Below are positions 2,403 through 64,000 of a stretch of 64,000 nt of DNA, piece after piece. The DNA lies in assembly GCA_031255645.1 (NCBI GenBank), contig JAIRSC010000090.1, positions 10,927 to 74,926 on the forward strand, written 5' to 3'. The DNA comes from Treponema sp. (lineage in GTDB: Bacteria > Spirochaetota > Spirochaetia > Treponematales > Breznakiellaceae). Position 1 is the first letter of the stretch. The number at the start of each line of letters is the position of its first letter. The position numbers and the translations under genes are program-made. Under the pieces are notes generated by a model, which was not told the origin of the DNA, ran no database searches, and worked only from the letters and a program-made list of their open reading frames with translations.

Positions 2403-3424
2403 CGCTCTTCTCCCCCATTGTCTTTTCCCTCATCGTCTTCTTCCGCGTCCGTTTCGGTAATTTGCAGCGTTATCTCGACCGGTTCCTGGCGGCTCAGCGT
2501 AAAAGTTTCGGGAACGGAAGCCAGTACCGGCAGCGTATAGGTTCCCGGCCCGGTAATGGCCGAAGCGTCAACGCTCAGCAGATTTTCCGGGGCTTCAAAA
2601 ACCTCAAGAAATCTCTGGGCGCCTTCAAGACGCAGGCTTCCGAAACCCGCCTCCGGGGCCGCGAAATCGCCGGAAAGCCCGGTAACGGAAATCGGGATGC
2701 CGTCGAAATTCCGTATCATTATCAATTCCCTGATAAAACCCCTGAATTCGGTCATGCCGTCGCCCCGGATCACCAGAAGGGAATTGGGGTTCATAACCCT
2801 GATGTGAAGGGCAAAATCCTCGTTTCGTCCCGTCAGGGCGATGGGGCTGGTAAACAACTCCGCCACGCCGCTTATCAGACTAACGGGGCCGTCGATAACC
2901 ACCTGGTTCGGTTCCAGCGTATAGGATACCATCTCGTAGCCGCTTTCGGGACTGCCCTCAAGGTCGGGAACGACGGGCACGTATTTGCTCAGCCTGGTAT
3001 CGAGTTCTATGGTTATTTCCATGGGATCCACGACGATCTCAAGATTTTCCGCCTCTATCGCGGTTCCCTTTTTCCGAATCCGCAGCGGCGCCCTGAAAGA
3101 ACCCGGCGTCCTGTACTCGGTTAGATCCAGATACGCCTCGACATCGTCTTCCGCCACCGGATAAATGCTGTTGGCGTCTCCCCGCAGGGTTACCCGGACA
3201 TTGCGGGGATACGGGCTTGAGGGAACAAGGTTACTGCCGATTTCAATGTGAAGGGGCACGGCAAAAAAACGTTCCTGAACATTCCCCAGGCGGTGAAACA
3301 CAAACAGAATAATCGCCGCCACGACGGAAAGCACCTTAACCGGCCACTTTTCCGTAATTTTGGCAAGAAATTGTTTGCCGTTCCGCCAATTTACCGTTTT
3401 TTTCGTATGTTCACTCAATGTCAA
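2399..3424 (-). CDS. YbbR-domain protein, probable CdaA regulator (CdaR-like)
   Basis: 341 aa with an N-terminal TM helix and repeated beta-rich YbbR-like modules. Overlaps both cdaA and acpS by a few nt, the usual cdaA-cdaR arrangement. Confidence 0.6.
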   Translation of the reverse strand: MTLSEHTKKTVNWRNGKQFLAKITEKWPVKVLSVVAAIILFVFHRLGNVQERFFAVPLHIEIGSNLVPSSPYPRNVRVTLRGDANSIYPVAEDDVEAYLDLTEYRTPGSFRAPLRIRKKGTAIEAENLEIVVDPMEITIELDTRLSKYVPVVPDLEGSPESGYEMVSYTLEPNQVVIDGPVSLISGVAELFTSPIALTGRNEDFALHIRVMNPNSLLVIRGDGMTEFRGFIRELIMIRNFDGIPISVTGLSGDFAAPEAGFGSLRLEGAQRFLEVFEAPENLLSVDASAITGPGTYTLPVLASVPETFTLSRQEPVEITLQITETDAEEDDEGKDNGGEER

Positions 3425-4223
3425 TAGCCCCGTTTTCGGTAATGTCCGTTCCGCCCCGCAGGGTTCTGTCCAAAAGCTCTTTCAGCTTGCGTTGAACCTC
3501 CAGCGGCGAAAGGTCATAGTACAGTTTCGATTCATAAGCCAGGGATATCGCCCCGGTTTCTTCCGACACGATAAGAACCACCGCGTCGCTCTGCTCGGAC
3601 ATGCCCAGGGCGGAACGGTGGCGGGTCCCGAAACTCTTCCGTATGTCCTGCTGTTCCGACAGCGGCAAAAGACAGCCGGCGGAAACAATGCGCCCGCCCT
3701 GTACCACCATCGCCCCGTCGTGCAGCGGCCCGTCGAACTGAAAGACCGCCACGATAAGGCTTGAGGAAAGATCGGCGTTAAGCCGCGTTCCGGTTTCAAG
3801 TATATGCCGCAGGCTTACCCGGCGGGGAAACACCACAAGAGCGCCCCGTTTAAGCTGGGAAAGGATCTCCGCGGCGGTGACCACGGCCTCAAGCTGTCCC
3901 AGCCTCGGCTTGTTGTCCAGCCTGAAAAACTCTCCCTGTCCAAGGCGCATGATAATCTGCCTGAGTTCCGGCTGGAATACAATCGCCACGGCCACAAAAA
4001 GCCCCGGAGCGAGTATGTTCAACAGCCATTGAAGGGTCGAAAGCTTAAACAGAAACGCTATGCCGAAAATAACCGCCAAAAACCCCGCGCCCCTCAAGAG
4101 CTGGATCGCCTGGGTCTTTAGGAGCAGATTGTAGGCCTTGTAGAGAAGAAACGCGAGAATCGCGATATCAAGCGCCGGGCGGAAAAGGTTATAAATATCA
4201 ACTATTCTTTGGTACCACAGCAT
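3411..4223 (-). CDS. cdaA: diadenylate cyclase CdaA (c-di-AMP synthase, DisA_N domain)
   Basis: 270 aa. Three N-terminal TM helices, then DGAMVV...GTRHRSALGMSEQSDAVVLIVSEETGAISLA, which contains the DGA and RHR motifs of DAC domains. Confidence 0.85.
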   Translation of the reverse strand: MLWYQRIVDIYNLFRPALDIAILAFLLYKAYNLLLKTQAIQLLRGAGFLAVIFGIAFLFKLSTLQWLLNILAPGLFVAVAIVFQPELRQIIMRLGQGEFFRLDNKPRLGQLEAVVTAAEILSQLKRGALVVFPRRVSLRHILETGTRLNADLSSSLIVAVFQFDGPLHDGAMVVQGGRIVSAGCLLPLSEQQDIRKSFGTRHRSALGMSEQSDAVVLIVSEETGAISLAYESKLYYDLSPLEVQRKLKELLDRTLRGGTDITENGAIDIE

Positions 4224-50306: not shown

Positions 50307-51293
50307 CTAGAGTTTGTTCACTTTAAAATTTCGGGAAGGATTAACAAGTTCTTCCTGGGCGGTGACAATGCTGATTTCCCGAATCCCCGCCTTGTGGGTC
50401 GCCTCTATAATGCCGTATACCGACGCCGCGGTCAGTTCCAGCGTCCGGCGTATGTCCCCGGTTTCAAGATAGCGGGAAAGAAACACCGCCGTGGTAAGAT
50501 CGCCTGAACCCGCCATCATCGAAATATTCTCGAAGTACAGTTCGGGGGTACACACACTGTAGATATCCCTGCCGTCCGAAGCGAGCATTTCGAGGTTTCG
50601 GGAAGCCGGGCTTCCCGTGGAAGCCGAGCTTCCCGTGGAAGTCGAGCCGCCCGTGGAAGCCGAGCTTTCCGTGGAAGCCGGGTTTTCGTCCGGCGGCGGG
50701 CTTTCGGAAGCGGGATCGGCGAGGGCGCCTGAAACCTGGCCCTGCCGGTAACTGGTAACCAGCACGATTTTCGGCCCCGCTTTGTGGAGGGCCTCTATCG
50801 CCCCAACCGCGCCGTCAAGGCCCGCGGTTTCGATTCCGGTAAGGGCCTCAAGCTCAAACTGGTTCGGGGTAATAATATCCGCGAGCGGAACCACTTCGCG
50901 CCTGAACATGTCGGGAATGTCGGGGCTTACATAAAAACCCCTCCCCACGTCCCCCATTACCGGATCGCAGCAATAGAGGACCTTTGGAGCGGCGGCCCGC
51001 ACCCGCTTTACCGCGCCGAGAATGGCCCTGCCCATGGAAGCGTCTCCCAGATAACCGGACAGCACCGCCTCGCAGTTTCCCAGGACACCCCTTTCTTCCA
51101 GGCCCAGGACGATTTCCTCCACGAGCGAAGAGCCGAGCACCTTGCCGCGCCAGGCTTTGTAGCCGGTGTGGTTCGAGAATTCGACCGTATGCACCGCCCA
51201 GACCTCCCGGCCCAGGCGCTGAAGGGGAAAAACAGCGGCGCTGTTTCCGGCGTGTCCGTACGCGACGTGAGATTGTATTGAAAGTACAGCCAT
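50307..51293 (-). CDS. pdxY: pyridoxal kinase (PdxK/PdxY family) carrying a Ser/Thr-rich repeat insertion
   Basis: Start at MAVLSIQSHVAYGHAGNSAAVFPLQRLG (AAAGGTGA upstream), very close to the PdxY N-terminus. Ribokinase-fold C-terminal GSGDLTTAVFL. Confidence 0.75.
   Translation of the reverse strand: MAVLSIQSHVAYGHAGNSAAVFPLQRLGREVWAVHTVEFSNHTGYKAWRGKVLGSSLVEEIVLGLEERGVLGNCEAVLSGYLGDASMGRAILGAVKRVRAAAPKVLYCCDPVMGDVGRGFYVSPDIPDMFRREVVPLADIITPNQFELEALTGIETAGLDGAVGAIEALHKAGPKIVLVTSYRQGQVSGALADPASESPPPDENPASTESSASTGGSTSTGSSASTGSPASRNLEMLASDGRDIYSVCTPELYFENISMMAGSGDLTTAVFLSRYLETGDIRRTLELTAASVYGIIEATHKAGIREISIVTAQEELVNPSRNFKVNKL
50601..50690. repeat. 5 tandem copies of an 18-bp unit inside pdxY (in-frame; encodes repeating 6-aa Ser/Thr/Gly/Ala units such as STGSSA)
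   Basis: GGAAGCCGGGCTTCCCGT / GGAAGCCGAGCTTCCCGT / GGAAGTCGAGCCGCCCGT / GGAAGCCGAGCTTTCCGT / GGAAGCCGGGTTTTCGTC. Confidence 0.85.
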
Positions 51294-51356
51294 GGATTCA
51301 CCTTTTACCAAAGCGGCAAAACGCCGCCGTTGTTCAATCGGACATTAACAAACCTG

Positions 51357-54271: not shown

Positions 54272-54439
54272 CCGGCGCTCCGGGCCGGGTACGCCGGCAT
54301 GAAGAAAAAATCGGGAAAAAAGGCTTGACAACGGGGCGCGGGCCCGGCACAGGATTTTTTCATGCAAATGTAGTATCTTTACCGATATAATTATAATAGT
54401 GGTTTAAACGGTTTTATGTAAAGGTATCGGGAGGGAGCG

Positions 54440-55222
54440 TTGAGACGTTTCAATCAATGTTGTATTTTTTTTCTTATAACGGGCGTTCTTTTCGCCCAGA
54501 ATCCCGGCATTAGGGACGGATCGTCGCCGGGTGGAACCTCGCCAGGCGGATCTTCGCAGGGCGGAACTTCGCCGGGCGGATCGTCGCCGGATTTCCGGCA
54601 GGGCGAGGAGCTTTTTCTGAGGAACAGGCCCGCCGAAGCCGTCGGTTTTCTTGAAAAAGTCAACGCCGCCGAGCCGGCCAATATACCCGCGGCGCTGTAT
54701 CTGGCGATGGCCTACGAACAGCTCGGCAGGGCGGACAACGCCATCGCCGTTTACAGGCGGATTCTTCCCGCCGGCGGGGAATATACCGCCCTTATCGCGT
54801 TTAACCTTGGCAACGTGTATTATGCCAAAGGCACGGCGGCTTTCGCGGAACAGTTTTATACCCAGGCAATCGAGGCCGATCCGGGCTACGCTTCGGCCTA
54901 CCTTAACAGGGCGAACACCCGGATAAAAACCGGCGCCCTGGCGGAAGCCGTTCCCGACTACGAGCTGTACCTTGCCCTGGAGCCGGCTTCTTCCAAGCGT
55001 CCCCAGATTGAGCGGCTTATCTCGCTTGTCGAGGAAGAAGCCGCCGCCGCCGAACGGCACAGACTGGCCGTCGAAGCGGCCGCCAGGGCGGAAGAGGAAC
55101 GGCGGCGGCAGCTTATTGACGAGGTTTCGGCCTCGCTTCAGGCGGCGGCCGAGGAAACACAGGGTTTTACGGCGGGTTCCGAAGATGTAACGGGTTATGA
55201 AGGAGAATTTGAACTGGAATGA
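54440..55222 (+). CDS. secreted TPR protein with GG(S/T)SP repeat and coiled-coil tail
   Basis: 260 aa. Signal peptide, GSSPGGTSPGGSSQGGTSPGGSSPD, then TPR-like repeats (AIAVYRRIL, AEQFYTQAIEADPGYASAYLNRA). Confidence 0.7.
   Translation: MRRFNQCCIFFLITGVLFAQNPGIRDGSSPGGTSPGGSSQGGTSPGGSSPDFRQGEELFLRNRPAEAVGFLEKVNAAEPANIPAALYLAMAYEQLGRADNAIAVYRRILPAGGEYTALIAFNLGNVYYAKGTAAFAEQFYTQAIEADPGYASAYLNRANTRIKTGALAEAVPDYELYLALEPASSKRPQIERLISLVEEEAAAAERHRLAVEAAARAEEERRRQLIDEVSASLQAAAEETQGFTAGSEDVTGYEGEFELE
54518..54592. repeat. 5 tandem 15-bp units (in-frame) in the TPR gene
   Basis: GGATCGTCGCCGGGT / GGAACCTCGCCAGGC / GGATCTTCGCAGGGC / GGAACTTCGCCGGGC / GGATCGTCGCCGGAT. Confidence 0.8.
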
Positions 55223-57153
55223 ACAAAACAGCACTTTTTGCGGGCGGCGCGGCCCTGGCCCTGCTTATTGCCGCGACGGCGTTTTTTTTCCTTGCCGGAC
55301 GGGGTTCGGCCGGGGGAGATATTGCCGGGGGAAGTCTGGGCGCCGCGCGGGACAATACCCTGCGGCTCGCCGGTGAATATATCGATCAGGGAGAATACCA
55401 GCGGGCGCTGGATCTTTTGGACGGCCTTCTTATCGCCAACCCTGACGACGAGCAGGCAAGAAACCTGAGAGATGAGGCGCTGAGGGTGAAACAGGGCCTT
55501 GCCCTGACGGACGGCGCGGCGGGTACGGAAACCGCCGGAACGGGAAACGCCGGAACGGAAGAGGCCGGGCCGGGAATGGCCGCGGGCGGCCGGAACCGGG
55601 AAACCGAAAACCGGGAGGCCTCCGCGGCTTCGGCGGCCGCCGAGGCCCTGGCTGCCGAAGCCGCCTCGGCGGCAAGACGGCGGGCCGAAGCCGAAGAACT
55701 TGCCCGCGCCTCGGCGGCCGTCCAGGCCCAGATGAAAGAGGTCAACGCCCTGGTCGAACAAGGCAGGGCGGCGGTACGGCGGAACGATTTTGACGCCGCC
55801 GAAGAAAGCTTTTCCCGGGCCCTGTCGAAACTGCCCCGCGGAGAAACCCGTTTTGAGGCCCAAAAGCACGCGGAAATTTCCGACGCGTGGTACGACGGCT
55901 TTGTCAGGAACAACGGCAGCGCCCTGGGAGAAACGGCGGCGAAAAACGCCGTGTCCGGCGCGCAGGAATCGATACGGAAAGATCCGGCCCTGGCCCTTCC
56001 CCACTATACGCTGGGCAAAATAAACCGGGACCGGGGCAACTGGCTCGGCGCCGAAACGGCCTTTGCGGAGGCGGCAAAACTGGATCCGAACAACTACCTT
56101 TACGCCTTCGATCTTGGCAGGAGCAGTTTCCGTACCGGAAAATACGAGAACGCCCGTGTCGCGTTTGAAAGCGCCGTCAAACTCAACGCCGATTTTGAGC
56201 CGGCCTGGTATAACCTTGGCGGAACCTACGCCGTCCTGAGAAGGAGCGACAACGCGCTGGCCGCCTACCGCAGGGCGGTCACGATAAAAAACGATTATGC
56301 CGTCGCCCACAGGGAAATCGGGCGGATTCTTTCGGCAAAACGGGACTACAGGGGCGCGATAGATTCCTTTAACAAGGCCATCACCTATAACCCCGGTGAC
56401 ATCGCCTCGCTTCGGGATTTGGGCTACGCCCAAAACCAGGCGGGCCAGAACCAGGCCGCCGAAACCTCGTTCGCCCAGGCCCTTGTTTCCGATCCCGGCG
56501 ATCCCCAGACAAACGACAATATGGCTATCGTCAAGATTGCCCTTGAAAAATATCCCGAGGCGGTACAGTACGCGAAAAAAGCCGCCGCCGCCGCGCCGGC
56601 CGTCGCGCGGTATTCCTATACCCTCGGCCTGGCCAGTGAAAAGGCGGGCGATCTTGACGCGGCGATAAGCGCCTATAAAAACGCGGCGCGGGATCCTTCC
56701 TACACGCGGCCCAGAATCAACCTGGGGCTTCTCTACCTGGAGAACGGGTTTCTCAACGAAGCCCTTTCGTATCTTATGGAAGCCTACAGAGCCGAGCCGT
56801 CTTCGTTTGAGGTAAACAACAATCTGGGAAACGTCTATGTCCGCATGGAAAACTGGGACGCCGCGGTGGAACGCTACAGGGCGGCCCTTTCCCGGCAGAG
56901 CGCGAACGTAACGGTCAGGATGAACCTTGCCAGGGCCTATGTAAAGGCGGGGAACTTTCCCCTGGCAAAGGAAGCGTATCTTGAAGTGCTCAAACTTGCC
57001 CCGATGAACTACGACGCCCTGTTTGAGCTGGGTAAAACCTGCGCCGGTACGGGAGACACCGCGGCGGCGAAACAGTACCTTGCCAGCCTTCTTGAAAAAA
57101 ACCCCTCCTATACCGGCAGGGCCGAAGCGGAAAAGCTTCTCGCTGAACTATGA
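55219..57153 (+). CDS. large TPR-repeat protein (N-terminal anchor, Ala/Glu-rich linker, about 10 TPRs)
   Basis: 644 aa. ATGA overlap with the upstream TPR gene. Repeated A..F..A(L/V)..(D/N)P....(A/Y)..LG motifs. Confidence 0.75.
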   Translation: MNKTALFAGGAALALLIAATAFFFLAGRGSAGGDIAGGSLGAARDNTLRLAGEYIDQGEYQRALDLLDGLLIANPDDEQARNLRDEALRVKQGLALTDGAAGTETAGTGNAGTEEAGPGMAAGGRNRETENREASAASAAAEALAAEAASAARRRAEAEELARASAAVQAQMKEVNALVEQGRAAVRRNDFDAAEESFSRALSKLPRGETRFEAQKHAEISDAWYDGFVRNNGSALGETAAKNAVSGAQESIRKDPALALPHYTLGKINRDRGNWLGAETAFAEAAKLDPNNYLYAFDLGRSSFRTGKYENARVAFESAVKLNADFEPAWYNLGGTYAVLRRSDNALAAYRRAVTIKNDYAVAHREIGRILSAKRDYRGAIDSFNKAITYNPGDIASLRDLGYAQNQAGQNQAAETSFAQALVSDPGDPQTNDNMAIVKIALEKYPEAVQYAKKAAAAAPAVARYSYTLGLASEKAGDLDAAISAYKNAARDPSYTRPRINLGLLYLENGFLNEALSYLMEAYRAEPSSFEVNNNLGNVYVRMENWDAAVERYRAALSRQSANVTVRMNLARAYVKAGNFPLAKEAYLEVLKLAPMNYDALFELGKTCAGTGDTAAAKQYLASLLEKNPSYTGRAEAEKLLAEL

Positions 57154-58711: not shown

Positions 58712-60073
58712 ATGCTTTTTACGCCTGTGGAAATAAAAGAAACGGTGGATATGTTCCTCCGCTACAAGCTCGACATCAGGGCCATTACGCTGGGGGTTTC
58801 CCTGCTGGACTGCGCCGCCTCGGCGGGAGCCGAAACCAGGCGCAGGATACGGGAAAAACTGTTCCGTCTTGCCGGCCCCCTTGTGCGGACGGGCCGGGAA
58901 ATCGAGCTGGAATACGGCATACCGATTATCAACAAGCGCGTTTCGGTTACGCCGCTCGCCCTTGTCGCCGCCGCGTCGGACGATACGGACTACGCTCCCT
59001 ACGCCGTCCTTCTCGACGAAATCGCCGGAGAGCTGGGCGTCGACTTTGTCGGGGGCTTTTCGGCCCTGGTGCAGAAGGGTTTTTCGGAGGGAGACAGGAA
59101 GCTTATCGATTCGATTCCCCGCGCCCTTTCTTCCACGGAGCGGGTCTGCGCGTCGGTAAACGTCGCCTCGACAAAAAGCGGCGTCAACATGGACGCGGTA
59201 AGGCGCATGGGGGAAGTGATAAAGGAAACCGCCGAAAAAACCGCCGCCAGGGACGGTCTTGGCTGCGCAAAACTTGTCGTGTTCTGCAACGCCCCGGAAG
59301 ACAACCCGTTTATGGCCGGCGCTTTTCACGGCCCCGGCGAAGGGGAAAGCTGCCTTAACGTCGGCGTTTCCGGCCCCGGCGTCGTCAGGGCGGCGCTTGA
59401 GGAAAGGCCGGACGCGGACTTTGACGAAATCGCCGAGATTATCAAAAAAACCGCGTTCAAGATTACCCGCATGGGGCAGCTTGTCGGCATGGAAGCGGCG
59501 AAGCGCCTGGGGGTTCCGTTCGGCATACTCGACCTTTCCCTCGCGCCGACCCCGGAGGTGGGCGATTCCGTCGCCCGTATCCTTGAGACAATGGGTCTTG
59601 AGGCGGCGGGAACCCACGGCACGACGGCGGCGCTTGCCCTGCTGACCGATCTTGTCAAGAAGGGCGGGGTTATGGCCAGCGCCCGGGTCGGCGGATTTTC
59701 CGGGGCCTTTATCCCCGTTTCGGAGGACGAGGGCATGGCCGCCGCCGTCAGGTCGGGCGCGATTAGCCTCGACAAGCTTGAGGCGATGACCAGCGTCTGC
59801 TCGGTCGGCCTCGACATGATAGCCCTTCCCGGCGACACGAGCGCGGCTACGCTGTCGGCCATCATCGCCGACGAAATGGTTATCGGCATGGTAAACGGCA
59901 AAACCACGGCGGTCAGGGTTATTCCGGTACCGGGGAAAAAGGCCGGGGACTGGGCGGAGTTCGGCGGTCTTTTGGGCGGCGCCCCGATTATGCCGGTTCA
60001 TTCGGCAAAGAGCGACGTTTTTATCGCCCGCGGCGGCCGGATTCCCGCGCCGATTCACAGTTTCCGGAATTGA
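58712..60073 (+). CDS. UPF0210 (DUF711, PFL-like) protein
   Basis: 453 aa. [23 protein letters not shown] and the conserved pairing with UPF0237 immediately upstream. Confidence 0.8.
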
Positions 60074-60161
60074 CCCCGGCGCAAAGCCCTGTCACGGCAT
60101 AAGGTGTACGCGGTCATAAAACCACTGTTACGTTCCATGGCTATTATTTACGGGCGCTAAG

Positions 60162-61778
60162 TCATGTACCCCAATTGATGGGTGAGGAGGTACTGAGGTT
60201 AACACCCGTTCCCGCGGTAGCGTCCCGCCACTGTCCTGCAGCTGTGTATACCGCGGGGCCGCTGGTGGTAGTGCTGGCGATGTTTCTGTCGCTTCCCCCA
60301 TTACTACCATAGATAATACTGTTACCCGTTTTGTTGAAGATTCCGCCGGCGGCGACATACACCCCGCCGCCGTTATTGGAGGCCTCGTTGCCACTGATGA
60401 TTCCGCCAGTCATGGTGAAGGGTCTGTTCATATCCAAATACACGCCGCCGCCGTTGTAGGCCGTGTGCTTCTTGATAGTTCCGCCGCTCATGGTGAAGGT
60501 TCCGGTATTGGTTATATACACCCCGCCGCCCCATCTGGAGCTGGAGACTATGTTATCGCTGATGGTTCCGCCCTCCATGTTGAAGGTTCCGGCGGTAACA
60601 TACACCCCGCCTCCGCCGCTACCGGGGCCCGTGCTCGTGGACATGTTACTGCTGATCTCCGCACTGCCGCTCATGTTTAACTGTCCGCTAAATACACTCA
60701 CCCCGCCGCCGTTAGCGGCTGTGTTATCATTGATGGTTCCGCCGCTCATAGTGAAGTTTTTGGTAGTGCCAAAAAACACCCCGCCGCCGGAGCCGGTCGT
60801 GGCCTCGTTGTGGTGGATGGTTCCGCTATACATGTTGAAGTTTCCGTTGCTACTGACAAAATTCACCCCGCCGCCGCTGCTGGCCTCGTTGTCGTGGATG
60901 GTTCCGCCGTTCATATTGAAGTCTCCATTGGCTACAAACACTCCGCCGCCGGGGCTGGTGGTCTCATTGTAGCTGATCTCCGCGCCGCCGCTCATATTAA
61001 AGGTTCCGCTGTTTACATGCACCCCGCCGCCGTTGCCGTTTGGGGCAATGCCTGTGACCGTGTTGCCGCTGATCTTCGCGTTGCCGCTCATGTTAAAGGT
61101 TCCGCCGTTTACAAGCACCCCGCCGCCTGTGTTGACAGCCGTGTTGCTCTCAATGGTTCCGCCGTTCATTTTGAAGATTCCGCCGCCGGCTACAAGTACC
61201 CCGCCGCCGTCGTTGCCGTTTCCCCCAGTCAACGTAAGATTGCCTTCCAGGGTTACGTCCGCGTTCTGTACATTGAGTACCCGCAGTGTGGCCCCACCCT
61301 GGATCTCGTTGGTTCCCATTCCGTCTCCCGCCAGAATAATGGGGGGATACTCGCCGTAGAGGCCGATACCGGCGGTGTCGCTAATAATGACCCGATTGGT
61401 TCCATCGCCTCCCGTTGTAATCGTCCCTTTAATCATGATTTTGGCCGCCGCCGGGGGCCAGGCCGGGTTGGCGCTCTTCTGGTAATTCGGCCAGGAACTG
61501 TCATAGGTGTTAGATATCACTTGCAACGCCCTGCCCACTGTGGCGAAGGGATTGTCCCGGGAGCCGTCGCCGGTGGCATCGTTCCCCGCCGGAGAAGATG
61601 AGGACGAGGCCACATAAACGGTCATGTGCAAGGGGTATCCCGCATTTTCTTCGGGATAGAAGGGGGCCAGAATACTCCGCATCCAGGGGTTCCCGCAGCC
61701 CGCGAAAAGCGCAAGGGCGGCGGCGAGAAAGAGCAATCGCCGGGTTCCTCTTGCCTTTGTGTATGCGGTCGTTTTCAT
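60162..61778 (-). CDS. surface lipoprotein built of about 11 GGGV-type parallel beta-helix (Pmp-like) repeats
   Basis: 538 aa. Lipobox LALFAGC, then repeats of 24-30 aa of the form GGGV(Y/F/L)V..G.F.M.GGTI..N.A. RBS AGGAGG. Confidence 0.7.
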   Translation of the reverse strand: MKTTAYTKARGTRRLLFLAAALALFAGCGNPWMRSILAPFYPEENAGYPLHMTVYVASSSSSPAGNDATGDGSRDNPFATVGRALQVISNTYDSSWPNYQKSANPAWPPAAAKIMIKGTITTGGDGTNRVIISDTAGIGLYGEYPPIILAGDGMGTNEIQGGATLRVLNVQNADVTLEGNLTLTGGNGNDGGGVLVAGGGIFKMNGGTIESNTAVNTGGGVLVNGGTFNMSGNAKISGNTVTGIAPNGNGGGVHVNSGTFNMSGGAEISYNETTSPGGGVFVANGDFNMNGGTIHDNEASSGGGVNFVSSNGNFNMYSGTIHHNEATTGSGGGVFFGTTKNFTMSGGTINDNTAANGGGVSVFSGQLNMSGSAEISSNMSTSTGPGSGGGGVYVTAGTFNMEGGTISDNIVSSSRWGGGVYITNTGTFTMSGGTIKKHTAYNGGGVYLDMNRPFTMTGGIISGNEASNNGGGVYVAAGGIFNKTGNSIIYGSNGGSDRNIASTTTSGPAVYTAAGQWRDATAGTGVNLSTSSPINWGT

Positions 61779-61826
61779 AGCTTCCTCCTAAAACCGGTAT
61801 CCCGGCAATACAAACAAATTCCCAAA

Positions 61827-62141
61827 CAGGCCGTTTTGCCCCAAAAACGGGCCGTTTTGCCCCAAAAACAGGTCATTCGGAGGTCCGAACAGGTCATTCG
61901 GACATCCGAATAAGTCATTCGGACATCCGAATAAGTCATTTGGCGGCCCAAATAAGTCATTCGGAGGTCCGAATAAGTCATTCGGACATCCGAACAAGTC
62001 ATTCGGACATCCGAATAAGCCATTTGGCGGCCCAAATAAGCCATTTGGCGGCCCAAATAAGCCATTTGGCGGCCCGAATAAGCCATTTGAAGGCCCGAAT
62101 AAGCCATTTGAAGGCCCGAACAAGCCGGGCGGTTTTGGGGC
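61827..62141. repeat. tandem array of 14 clear (plus 1 degenerate) 21-bp units, each with an internal palindrome
   Basis: Units fall in phase every 21 nt: 2x CRGGCCGTTTTGCCCCAAAAA; YARGTCATTCGGA(CA/GG)TCCGAA; TAAG(T/C)CATTTGGCGGCCC(A/G)AA; 2x TAAGCCATTTGAAGGCCCGAA. Intergenic between 62190 and 61778. Confidence 0.9.
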
Positions 62142-62189
62142 CGGAACCGCCGGTATTCAAACGGAAATAAGGGCGGCTGTTTTGATCGT

Positions 62190-62879
62190 CTAGTCCCAGC
62201 TATAGCCAAGTTCCAGCCCGGCGCCCGGCAGTATAATGGCCGGAGCGCTGTCCCCCGCCGCGCCGCCGGAACTGTTTCCCAGCGGATCGGCGGGAACGAG
62301 GAGTTCTTCCGCCGCGTCAAAGGAACGTACCGGCGTATTGCTGGCTTCGTCCACATAACTCATTCCGCCGGCGGCTACGGATACGTTTCTCCCGCCGGTC
62401 AGGAAGTATTGAACGCGCCCCTCGTCTACCCGGAGCCGCTCCGTATCAAATTCAAATGACGTACCCCGGACCGACGCGGTGGCGTTGGGGCTCCTGACGG
62501 TAAAATCGGTTCTTCCCCCGGCGGGCGGCTTTACCTCGGCCCGGACCCTCCCCGTGTGAAGATAGAGGTTTACCTGTTCCGTGTTTTGATCCCTGATTAT
62601 TTCTTCCAGACTCAGGCGGGTTACGGGCCGCAGGGTTATAAGCGAATCTCCCAAAACAAGGACGGCGGTACTTCTAAAGCCGGTCGAGACCAGGGTGTTT
62701 TTTTCTACGCGGTCTCCTTTGGCGGCATTTGTCCAAACCGCCGAACCGGGGGCCTTGACTTCCACCGTTCCGCTTATTTCCCGGAAAAAAGCGGTTTCCT
62801 GGGCGTAAAGGCTCCGGGGAAAAAACAAAACGCCGCTCAACACAAGGGCCAATACAAAAAAATGTTTTCCGTGGTTCAT
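62190..62879 (-). CDS. FecR-domain protein (secreted)
   Basis: 229 aa. Signal peptide, then ISGTVEVKAPGSAVWTNAAKGDRVEKNTLVSTGFRSTAVLVLGDSLITLRPVTRLSL, a typical FecR/DUF4974-type beta-sandwich block. Confidence 0.55.
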   Translation of the reverse strand: MNHGKHFFVLALVLSGVLFFPRSLYAQETAFFREISGTVEVKAPGSAVWTNAAKGDRVEKNTLVSTGFRSTAVLVLGDSLITLRPVTRLSLEEIIRDQNTEQVNLYLHTGRVRAEVKPPAGGRTDFTVRSPNATASVRGTSFEFDTERLRVDEGRVQYFLTGGRNVSVAAGGMSYVDEASNTPVRSFDAAEELLVPADPLGNSSGGAAGDSAPAIILPGAGLELGYSWD

Positions 62880-62894
62880 ATATCCTGTCCTCCA

Positions 62895-64000
62895 CTAAAA
62901 AGAAAAAATCGTTTCCAGAGAAACACGCCACTTGACGGGCGCGCCCGGGCCAAAAGCTTTTCCCAGTTGGGGGAAGAACGCGCCTCCGCCCAGGGTAAAG
63001 GAAATATCCGAAACCGGCGCCCAGACAAGGCCGCCGTAAACTTCGCCCCCAAGCAGGGGGGAACGTGAGAACCTGTCCAGGTCGGGATCGTTGTAGGTGT
63101 GGGAATCGGTTCTGAAAAAATAGGCCGCCCACGCTTCCACGGAAAGGACCGTATGAAGCCGCGCGACATAGCCCAGTTCAGCCAGGGCGAGGCCGGATAT
63201 CGCCGGCCGCAGTACTTTTCCCTGGGCTATGGTGTTGAGGGGAAGAAAAGCCCTCATGGTATCGTTCCAGGACCCGGAAGACAGGCTGATATCCAGGGAC
63301 AGCCGGTCGTTCACGCCGCCCGGAGGAAGCCAGGCTAAACCGCCCGATACGGCAAAACAGAAGCCCGGCGCCCGGCCGTCTTCCTCCAGTATTCCCGCGA
63401 TCGCCCCCAGTCTGGCGTTATAATAATCCGAAAAGGGCAGGGTATATTCGGCCAGGGCGTATTGGGAATGAATTTTTCTGTCCCCGGGAATCTGATCGTC
63501 CGGTTCGTTCAAATCGAACTGTCCGGCGATTCCCAGGTTGAGCGCCGCTTCGGTACCGGCGACAGCCGGAATTTCCCAGTCCAGGGCAAAGGCCAGCCGC
63601 CGGGACGCGAAATACACGCCCCGGTCGTAATAGGCCGAATAGTCGCCGGGGCTGAGCACAATGTGGGCGGCTTTTTTGTACAAAAGCCCGGTATAAAAGG
63701 CGCCCGCGGAAAGCCGTGTTTCTCCCAGGCCGATACTCAAGCCAAGGCCGTCAAAAAGTCCGTTCATCAGCAGATTAAGCGGTTCCCGGTACGCAAGGCG
63801 TCCGGCTTTAAGGCGCGGGCCGGAAGCAAAGCGGTACTCGATTTCAAAACGGTACAGTTCGGGAACCGGCTTCCATTCCCCGCCGGCGTATTCGGCGGAG
63901 ATTCCCCCGGAAAGGTATAGATCGCCCTGTTCCCCAAGGGGGGCGGCGAACCAGGGGACGGCGCTCGCGGTATATTCCATGTTTACCGGGTCGTCCCCGC
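62895..64000 (-). CDS. predicted outer-membrane beta-barrel protein, 5' end probably outside the window
   Basis: Frame stays open upstream of Met-63980 to the window edge, and there is no signal peptide at that Met. Alternating aromatic/glycine strands, C-terminal ...VSLETIFSF. Confidence 0.45.
   Translation of the reverse strand, partial: GDDPVNMEYTASAVPWFAAPLGEQGDLYLSGGISAEYAGGEWKPVPELYRFEIEYRFASGPRLKAGRLAYREPLNLLMNGLFDGLGLSIGLGETRLSAGAFYTGLLYKKAAHIVLSPGDYSAYYDRGVYFASRRLAFALDWEIPAVAGTEAALNLGIAGQFDLNEPDDQIPGDRKIHSQYALAEYTLPFSDYYNARLGAIAGILEEDGRAPGFCFAVSGGLAWLPPGGVNDRLSLDISLSSGSWNDTMRAFLPLNTIAQGKVLRPAISGLALAELGYVARLHTVLSVEAWAAYFFRTDSHTYNDPDLDRFSRSPLLGGEVYGGLVWAPVSDISFTLGGGAFFPQLGKAFGPGAPVKWRVSLETIFSF

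Follow-up and report, generated by a model that had tools for sequence, protein, structure and literature searches.

Background

Interspersed palindromic repeats, such as the REP, BOX, MIRU and ERIC sequences, are known from a few well-studied bacterial phyla. REP elements are frequently part of operon transcripts, whose stability their hairpins influence, as seen in work on malEFG. The BOX elements of Streptococcus pneumoniae are intergenic and hairpin-forming, include a module, boxB, tandemly repeated in variable number, and lie near genes of unrelated function; MIRU units, 46–101 bp long, are not simple hairpin palindromes. Tandem, evenly spaced and orientation-consistent arrays of about 12 REP units, at a spacing of 72–112 bp, have been described in Pseudomonas fluorescens (PMC3116915), and the open frame of MIRUs is linked to a neighbouring start codon (PMC12548453). 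No spirochaete counterpart of these repeats was found in the literature searched. We report here on an array of tandem 21-bp units, each containing a short palindrome, located between a FecR-like gene and a lipoprotein gene of Treponema sp. (contig JAIRSC010000090.1); the window, throughout, is the whole stretch of 64,000 nucleotides of this contig that was analysed. The array is one of the copies of a hitherto undescribed tandem-repeat family, hairpin-forming and dispersed between unrelated genes in the genomes of termite-gut spirochaetes. Its design is unusually strict: abutting 21-bp hairpin units, arrays of up to 14 of them, and several sequence subfamilies sharing one period.

Results

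Architecture of the array

Read in register from position 61827, the array consists of 14 units, each of exactly 21 bp, set head to tail without insertions or deletions up to position 62120; the window sequence belongs to a metagenome-assembled genome, and the exact unit number could be an assembly estimate. Two divergent units (CAGGCCGTTTTGCCCCAAAAA) are followed by 12 core units (YARGYCATTYGRnnnYCCRAA) and by a degenerate edge unit (Table 1). Together they fill the 411-bp gap between the stop of the FecR-like gene (62190) and the ATG of the lipoprotein gene (61778), ending 48 nt before the latter. Tandem Repeats Finder describes the same region as a 21-bp array at 61874–62126 (12.0 copies, 87% matches, score 233), a second 21-bp array at 61824–61872 (2.3 copies) and an 84-bp higher-order repeat (score 324), which is the footprint of block duplication via unequal recombination or slippage. 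The divergent units resemble the TTTGG...CCAAA subfamily found at two of the other loci described below (L014 and L017).

A first-pass annotation of this DNA had described the gap as almost filled by 21-bp units ending 48 nt before the ATG, and both coordinates and register are confirmed. It had counted about 14 units as far as 62141: the number stands, but the units end at 62120, and the segment 62121–62141 is only a degenerate edge. The palindromes it listed (TTCGGA-NN-TCCGAA, TTTGG-CGGC-CCAAA and, across a unit junction, CCGTTTT-GCCCCA-AAAACGG) are all present; so are the loss of symmetry near 62100, which concerns two units, and the order B',B,B,C of the units within the 84-bp repeat.

The core array lies between the arms of a 12-nt inverted repeat (61838–61849 and 62130–62141, GCCCCAAAAACG and CGGTTTTGGGGC), complementary at 11 of 12 positions. 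In RNA the arms could form a large stem enclosing the core array; alternatively, they could be a remnant of TTTGGGG-type units.

No array units were found elsewhere in the window, the expectation from shuffled sequence being 0 matches, and an unfiltered covariance-model search of the window returned neither a match outside the array nor a solitary copy. Rfam scanning of positions 60000–64000 yielded only sub-threshold microRNA-like matches, which reflect the hairpin potential of the region. Targeted full-text literature searches found no described spirochaete equivalent, and those for a 21-bp tandem repeat with a palindrome turned up only an unrelated chloroplast genome paper. The earlier statement that no described element has this unit therefore holds for Rfam families, for matches in plasmids and phages and for the literature searched.

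A family dispersed over unrelated loci

Relatives of the array were obtained by scanning genomes with a degenerate two-unit pattern, and by pattern and protein (peptide) searches of metagenomes. Near-identical units are found at four loci. L001 and L002 come from two other metagenome-assembled genomes of spirochaetes: the former (Treponema sp.) has 4.6 units or more, located at a contig end, and the latter (Spirochaetaceae) has 13 units, along with a second, sequence-unrelated 21-bp array; L003 has 14 units, one unit type being identical to a window unit at 20 of 21 positions; and L010 has 5 units, one of which is identical to a window unit at all 21. More distant variants occur at L014 and L017 (units TTTGG-N4-CCAAA in L014 and L017b), L015 (a degenerate array), L016 (11.6 units of TTCGGATATCCGGATGCTCTG) and L018, a further array added by the metagenome and protein searches.

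The genes beside these arrays are mutually unrelated: they include trkH with a small open reading frame (ORF), relA/spoT, comFB, a gene for an HSDR_N/PDDEXK protein, moaC with a thiamine-pyrophosphate enzyme gene, proQ with thiC, and a PilZ protein gene. No flanking sequence is shared among the five closest arrays (window, L001, L002, L003 and L010). A mobile element with defined ends was considered and rejected, as these five arrays have neither conserved flanks nor terminal repeats.

The evidence counted for a common family is unit identity beyond the search pattern (L001, L003 and L010), intergenic location, orientation relative to genes, and three arrays met by accident next to targeted ones (the second array of L002, L014:1–94 and L017:734–922; Table 1). 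The latter differ in sequence, all with a 21-bp period which was not imposed by the search, and two of the three carry clear palindromes of 14–17 nt.

Several observations concern the surroundings of these arrays. Most of the extra arrays adjacent to targeted ones feature a 14–17-nt palindrome; in L017, around 3800–3845, there are two further TTTGGATCCAAAA units with a period of about 21 bp as judged by eye. The TTTGG...CCAAA arrays at L014:3281–4048 and L017:3660–4500, which derive from the same sample, have common flanks and look like mosaic intergenic repeat regions: the common flank ahead of the array reads, for instance, ...GAGGCGCrmAGCGCCG-ATAAT...TTATGCAGrGGCrGGACCG, CCGGTTTTCCTGCCGCGC is found after the array, and other short dispersed motifs, GGCAGCCTCCGGCTGTT and CATGAAGCGC, are also in common. 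Two L014/L017 motifs, GGCAGCCTCCGGCTGTT and AGAGGCGCAAAGCGCCGATAAT, were searched for in the window and are absent from it. Heptanucleotide tandem repeats (TCTTAAT, ATCAAAA, AAAAGAG, CGCGAGC, AACTCCC, CAATTGA, TCATAAC and others) are found on contigs carrying 21-bp arrays, and in L015 directly flank the array; they are reminiscent of the cyanobacterial STRR heptamers.

Other pattern matches were discarded as due to chance: those in L005 and L008 correspond to a coiled-coil gene read in another frame, and the one in L009, at a GC content of 23%, to a zinc-finger protein read in another frame. The homology of L004, L006, L007 and L018 to the window family is uncertain, the shared features being enforced by the pattern or peptide search; these are lower-GC contigs, some with Bacteroidota-like genes. 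L004 contains an array of 6–7 units of 21 bp (2529–2662, minus strand; TTCGGAGGTTCGAATGACATG, heptads FGGSNDM), lying in frame within ORF 1508–2854. The host gene encodes DNA polymerase III delta' (PF13177, holB), with the "...RLLC" segment on one side of the array and the CGKCKSC zinc motif on the other; either a coding loop has here tolerated a distant family member, or the pattern match is due to chance.

Absence from related FecR loci

Four related FecR loci (L011, L012, L013 and L019, with 70–77% protein identity) contain no 21-bp array. In L011 and L013 a CHASE2-cyclase gene lies 22–26 nt 3' of fecR, in L012 a fucose-isomerase-like gene follows, and in L019, the closest FecR relative (77% identity), a 250-nt repeat-free spacer precedes an ABC ATPase gene. 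The best homologue of the lipoprotein is only 46% identical, so that no orthologous upstream region is available for comparison, copy-number variation included. Since the related FecR loci lack the array and the lipoprotein lacks a close orthologue, the array lies at a synteny break and is lineage-specific.

As to gene order, the relatives L011 and L013 feature an operon encoding an OmpA-like protein, a 417-aa protein, the FecR-like protein and a CHASE2-guanylate/adenylate cyclase; in the corresponding region of the window (62190–63980) the cyclase partner is missing, and the array and the beta-helix lipoprotein gene are in its place.

A link between the array and the lipoprotein gene, whose expression the first-pass annotation supposed to be tuned or switched by unit number, is contradicted by the four FecR loci without an array and by the presence of the 21-mer family at unrelated intergenic sites. 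The same annotation had opposed to its proposal a generic satellite with no positional link to genes; the family comes close to this description, being located at unrelated sites elsewhere, and differs from it by a strand link to neighbouring genes, described below.

A neutral or selfish satellite has to be weighed as an alternative. Palindromic 21-mers would multiply through unequal recombination and through replication errors, slipped-strand or hairpin-mediated, and persist where harmless, with no function at the locus; intrastrand template-switch "correction", rather than selection, would keep the arms symmetric. Dispersal at unrelated loci, with downstream genes lacking a common function, and the absence of the array from related FecR loci fit this view, as do the higher-order repeat and degenerate edge units, typical of unequal crossing-over, and the in-frame array within the DNA polymerase III delta' gene of L004, as for a tolerated insertion. 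Purely mutational growth does not predict, in contrast, that sequence-unrelated neighbouring arrays share a strict 21-bp period, nor does the satellite view predict an identical 21-mer at non-homologous loci of different genomes.

Maintenance of the palindrome

Among 56 distinct units from eleven arrays, 92% of the cells of the six-pair palindrome are paired. Double-change cells amount to 28, versus 10.6 in shuffled sets, none of 500 shuffles reaching 28, and both-sided changes are found in 3 of the 6 pairs. This signal rests largely on the distant subfamilies TTTGG/CCAAA and TTTTGC/GCAAAA. Within the window array, C-to-T changes in the left arm matched by G-to-A changes in the right arm, on which the first reading had laid stress, are indeed present; they correspond, however, to about one double change, spread by unit duplication, and uncompensated intermediates, pairing C with A, are found in unit 62058 and in two units near 62100. 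Covariation was thus overstated: it does not exceed shuffles in the closest subfamily, and both this result and the presence of uncompensated intermediates inside arrays are in line with a satellite.

Strand asymmetry and orientation

More telling than covariation is a strand asymmetry: two further pairs lie beyond the palindrome visible in DNA. On the gene strand, the first is formed (as U·G, C-G or U-A) in 40 of 41 units and the second (as G·U or A-U) in 39 of 41, while on the opposite strand the figures drop to 10 and 12, respectively. Because of these G·U pairs the stem reaches 7–8 bp on the gene strand, versus 5–6 bp on the antisense one, and a single unit is predicted to fold at -8.5 kcal/mol in the sense orientation (8 bp) and at -6.3 kcal/mol in the antisense one (6 bp). 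For the spacer as a whole, the predicted folding energy is -192 kcal/mol (z = -8.9).

Orientation was scored only at loci with co-directional flanks, with a single known flank, or with the array inside a gene. The sense strand of the units coincides with the gene strand at 8 of 9 such loci (window, L001, L004, L006, L010, L014, L017b and L018), and is opposed at L016. Neither this co-orientation nor the gene-strand-specific extension of the stem by G·U pairs is predicted by a neutral satellite, which we regard as unlikely, though it is the alternative to be taken most seriously.

Strand asymmetry also bears on the possibility that the array acts as DNA, as a cooperative operator, iteron or centromere-like site, where a dimeric protein would bind a 14–16-bp palindrome (ATTCGGAnnTCCGAAT) at a 21-bp spacing, and hence on one face of the helix. 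The period of exactly 21 bp without indels over 14 units suits such a site, some units are perfect 7+2+7 palindromes, and the neighbouring arrays, which keep the period with other palindromes, would fit paralogous binders of different specificity; in L014 and L017b the array is found upstream of a promoter-like site, in the position of an upstream activating site. A symmetric binding site, however, predicts neither strand asymmetry nor orientation bias, and this weakens the DNA-level reading. Moreover, no rep, parA, parB or DNA-binding gene was found in the examined flanks (genes within about 7 kb), where the context is one of chromosomal housekeeping genes, and no match was found among 72,556 plasmids and 50,697 phages by BLAST, nor in scans of viral contigs. 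A single array mixes TTCGGA/TCCGAA, TTTGG/CCAAA and symmetry-broken units, which a sequence-specific binder should not tolerate, and the lack of a common function among the genes downstream of the arrays argues against a regulon. A role as protein-binding DNA is, on these grounds, improbable. Of the two alternatives initially offered for the array, phased DNA sites and a string of hairpins in a minus-strand transcript, the second fits best, given the longer stem on the gene strand, and the iteron, centromere and operator proposals are not upheld.

The open frame

On the gene strand, the units can be read as heptads F-G-x-P-N-[DG]-L. Coding and palindrome readings are confounded, because the F-G-x-P-N motif automatically results in a TT.GG....CC.AA palindrome, and conversely; both "covarying" changes are synonymous in this frame (TTC/TTT for Phe, CCG/CCA for Pro). 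The array might be translated, as a small protein or as an upstream ORF whose ribosomes, on reaching its end, would pass to the start of the lipoprotein gene, as has been proposed for MIRUs. No stop interrupts the frame anywhere in the array; it shares its phase with the FecR stop and with the lipoprotein ATG (414 = 3 x 138), and is closed by a TAG which overlaps the Shine-Dalgarno sequence, 9 nt before the ATG; in L010, L015 and L018 the array ORF likewise ends 12–40 nt before the next gene. Synonymous differences between units account for 28 of 62 events, versus 22% expected on an unweighted basis; a similar array is certainly translated within holB in L004; and MIRUs have been described as start-codon insertions with a coupled ORF (PMC12548453).

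Against translation, neither an ATG or GTG start nor a ribosome-binding site is present for the heptad frame, which two in-frame stops separate from fecR. Its codon usage is alien to the host: TTA occurs 9 times in 12 units, versus 2% of Leu codons in the long genes of the window, CCA 4 times in 12 units, versus 2% of Pro codons, and AAT 12 times in 12 units, versus 29% of Asn codons, and G+C at third positions is 0.48, as compared to 0.65 in host genes. The synonymous excess becomes marginal under a null model aware of mutation type (P = 0.03–0.10). In L014 units of 20 and 22 nt break the frame, L017a units carry a TAG in the frame aligned to FG, and the heptad ORF has no Pfam or PDB relatives. 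As to L004, identity is 16/21, much of it forced by the search pattern, and homology is uncertain. Translation of the window array as a native gene is, in conclusion, unlikely, indeed very doubtful, and a MIRU-like coupled upstream ORF is a minor rival. The first-pass view of a non-coding array, which had taken note of the open GPPNGLF frame but not of the synonymy of both changes in it, holds at this locus.

Some related observations can be added. Over positions 61778–62192 the FecR stop, the array frame and the lipoprotein ATG share one frame, which contains a TAG, a TGA ten codons later and the TAG over the Shine-Dalgarno sequence; the chance of such a one-frame alignment is about 1 in 9. 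In public protein collections, small "hypothetical proteins" consisting of FGxPNxx or xxFGxPN heptads between nonsense flanks are numerous (Table 1). Where the underlying DNA was read (P0157, P0188 and P0209), each turned out to derive from an intergenic 21-bp array, translated on one or other strand, and they are annotation artefacts of such repeats.

Possible role of the array

No promoter-like site was detected by scanning in or beside the window array, and no sigma-70-like promoter was found in 61779–61826. No terminator-like site was found in the spacer 62142–62189; two were found inside the array, not above chance expectation. With co-directional flanks and no promoter- or terminator-like site above chance on either side, transcription together with the fecR-like operon is most likely. 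The most likely reading of the window array is thus an intergenic repeat that is transcribed, rather than a switch dedicated to the lipoprotein gene. The fuller interpretation, which we favour tentatively and at somewhat less than even chances, is that of a non-coding, expansion-prone hairpin repeat of a dispersed family that is transcribed along with the fecR-like operon and forms the leader, or an intercistronic part, of the lipoprotein mRNA.

According to this interpretation, each transcribed unit would fold into a hairpin of 7–8 bp, UG-UUCGG-N4-CCGAA-UG, with a predicted energy of about -8.5 kcal/mol; alternatively, base pairing between units might produce a long, imperfect duplex. If it acts at all, the string of hairpins, like REP/BIME and BOX elements, would act on the RNA; it could block exonucleases or attract double-strand-specific processing, and thereby make the downstream cistron independent of the upstream one in stability and translation. 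The dose would change whenever slippage or unequal recombination added or removed units.

Various points weigh against this interpretation. The features forced by the search pattern (TTYGG...CCRAA and AATG) cannot be counted as independent evidence. In the closest subfamily, two-sided covariation concerns 3 cells, versus 3.3 expected, and the covariation score is reached by 177 of 500 shuffles: support for the palindrome here consists of conservation and of one-sided, wobble-compatible changes, and could reflect descent from one ancestral unit. The letters conserved around the stem, T-R before and T-G after it, are equally demanded by the heptad F-G-x-P-N-[DG]-L, and inheritance from a single ancestor, in place of selection, could account for them. 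Two of the window unit types (TTTGGGCCGCCAAA and TTCGGGCCTTCAAA) fold weakly on their own. The orientation bias comes from a small sample (8 of 9, one-sided binomial probability about 0.02), whose loci are of unequal homology confidence. In L014 and L017b, a good sigma-70-like promoter can be read between the array and the next gene, and these two arrays may lie upstream of the transcription start. Finally, transcription through the window array, as well as any effect on the mRNA and any variability in copy number, is inferred.

A more far-reaching possibility, decidedly speculative and in our opinion improbable, is that the module UG-UUCGG-N4-CCGAA-UG is a strand-specifically maintained RNA hairpin repeat, and that arrays serve as multivalent platforms or sponges for an RNA-binding protein, e.g. 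a CsrA-like binder of GGA hairpins, unit number setting the dose. Arrays would then be present in leaders, intercistronic spacers and 3' regions, and in frame in holB (L004), over a range including termite-gut Treponema and, possibly, the Bacteroidota-like contigs (L004, L006, L007 and L018). GGA, as GGAUGU or GGACCU, is found in 6 of the 14 window units, straddling the boundary between stem and loop; the TTTGGG and TTCGGG units lack it, as do the two divergent ones. If true, this would make the arrays a new class of cis- or trans-acting repeat RNA, and not a passive satellite.

Should the arrays prove to be transcribed and variable in copy number, they could provide a simple tuning of neighbouring genes, surface lipoproteins included, in uncultured gut symbionts, and be usable as strain-typing markers. 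A practical hazard exists in any case: arrays break short-read assemblies, two of them being located at contig ends, and spawn spurious FGxPNxL "hypothetical proteins".

Flanking genes and other repeats of the window

The features discussed are listed in Table 1. A database entry, "MAG: FecR family protein [Treponema sp.]", has the same sequence as the FecR-like protein of the window, which has many relatives at 60–77% identity, including Treponema primitia proteins and many unnamed metagenome sequences, which are taken to be from termite guts. Other neighbouring genes encode a DUF711/ACT protein, an AI-2E transporter and a TPR protein. The TAG which closes the open frame of the array (61788–61790) overlaps the AGGAGG upstream of the lipoprotein gene.

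Two further origins of the array were ruled out on the basis of these flanks. It is not a lost or decayed C-terminal extension of FecR, because all homologues share a terminal ...G-x-x-W-[DE] motif, nor the N-terminal part of the lipoprotein, whose ATG is followed by a normal signal peptide and lipobox.

Table 1. Features of the window array, of its flanks and of related loci
Feature	Location	Strand	Description
Core array	61869..62120	-	12 units, gene strand TTYGGnnnnCCRAATGRCYTR; 5-6-bp palindrome, 7-8 bp in RNA via U·G/G·U
Divergent units (2 x 21 bp)	61827..61868	-	gene strand TTTTTGGGGCAAAACGGCCYG; palindrome CCGTTTT/AAAACGG across unit junction
Degenerate edge unit	62121..62141	-	plus strand CAAGCCGGGCGGTTTTGGGGC; 62130-62141 is the inverted-repeat partner of 61838-61849
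84-bp higher-order repeat	61872..62124	.	four-unit blocks, 3.0 copies, 84% matches
FecR-like gene (PF04773)	62190..62879	-	complete; C-terminus ...GYSWD* agrees with homologue ends
Spacer 3' of FecR-like stop	62142..62189	-	local G+C-rich hairpin (about 62125-62153), no U-run
48-nt spacer before lipoprotein ATG	61779..61826	-	Shine-Dalgarno AGGAGG at 61784-61789
Lipoprotein gene	60162..61778	-	signal peptide and lipobox LFAGC; fast-evolving Treponema parallel beta-helix repeat family
Accidental array	L002:482-569		unit GGCCGCTCGCGCTTGAGGAAA; Tandem Repeats Finder, 21-bp period
Accidental array	L014:1-94		unit CAAGAAAACCTTTCTTGGCTA; palindrome CAAGAAA-ACC-TTTCTTG; Tandem Repeats Finder, 21-bp period
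Accidental array	L017:734-922		unit TTATTTTGCTAGCAAAAAAAC; TTTTGCTAGCAAAA; Tandem Repeats Finder, 21-bp period
Heptanucleotide repeats	L015:194-223, 752-781; L003:3117-3186; L010:1-42; L018:977-1009; L006, L007 (several)
Heptad "hypothetical proteins"	P0125, P0131, P0157, P0174, P0178, P0188, P0204, P0209

Two other tandem repeats were noticed in the window. The first, at 50601–50680, is composed of 4.4 copies of an 18-bp unit (GGAAGCCGAGCTTCCCGT) with an internal palindrome, GGAAGC-CGA-GCTTCC; since it falls within an ORF (50307–51311, minus strand), it probably is a coding six-residue repeat. The second, at 54517–54590, is a 15/30-bp repeat (CGGATCGTCGCCGGG) in 4.9 copies, in a region of overlapping ORFs (54404–55234, minus strand, and 54440–55222, plus strand).

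Comparison with known systems

Among systems acting at the DNA level, iterons (17–22 bp) and the sopC centromere of F (12 x 43 bp, each with an inverted repeat) resemble the window array, being phased direct repeats with an internal inverted repeat in about a dozen units. The 14 units of exactly 21 bp indeed fall within the size range of iterons and are in helical phase, but neither an adjacent rep gene or replicon origin nor any similarity to plasmids or phages is associated with them. Partition centromeres of the sopC/parS type differ in that no parA or parB is found within about 7 kb, that the repeat occurs at many unrelated chromosomal loci, and that its palindromes are mixed. Phase-variable repeats lie between the -35 and -10 elements or within an ORF, so that expression is switched by copy number; no promoter-like site was found in or beside the window array, which lies outside both ORFs and whose 21-bp unit preserves frame and helical phase. 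CRISPR arrays differ as well, since the units abut, with no spacers, and no CRISPR family was matched in Rfam.

Type III toxin-antitoxin loci, where ToxI (5.5 repeats of 36 nt upstream of toxN) acts as RNA, share with the window a tandem array upstream of a gene and co-oriented with it. In contrast to these loci, the genes downstream of our arrays encode a lipoprotein, ComFB, a thiamine-pyrophosphate enzyme, a PilZ protein and others; no endoribonuclease of the ToxN, AbiQ, CptN or TenpN type was recognized by Pfam or PADLOC in the window lipoprotein or in the downstream genes of L003, L010, L015 and L018, nor did any other PADLOC model match, and there is no terminator between the window array and the gene. 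Sponge RNAs such as CsrB and RsmZ feature many GGA motifs in loops and are independently transcribed; in the window array GGA is present in 6 of the 14 units, at the stem-loop boundary, and neither a promoter nor a terminator of its own was found, nor an Rfam match.

By analogy, the array would seem to work most like the REP/BIME, BOX and MIRU elements, and yet it fails the defining features of each. MIRUs, used as variable-number tandem repeats (VNTRs), are similarly tandem, placed between co-directional genes and operon-oriented, and their ORF overlaps the adjacent stop and start codons; the window unit, however, is 21 bp long, its open frame has no start, uses non-native codons, and stops 9 nt before the ATG without overlapping it. 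BOX elements have conserved boxA and boxC ends, while the five closest arrays have no conserved flanks (flanks common to L014 and L017b exist, but their motifs are absent from the window), and the boxB unit is 45 nt long, versus 21. REP, BIME and REPIN sequences share with the present family the character of short extragenic palindromes, able to form hairpins and dispersed over many intergenic sites. They differ in being associated with RAYT, an IS200-like Y1 transposase, no gene for which is known near the window array; in the host phylum; and in their layout, as the window units are all direct 21-bp repeats set strictly head to tail, none of them forming an inverted doublet, and make up one array with no solitary copies within the window. 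The nearest published architecture is that of the Pseudomonas fluorescens REP arrays: there, units are spaced by other sequence, whereas in the window they abut.

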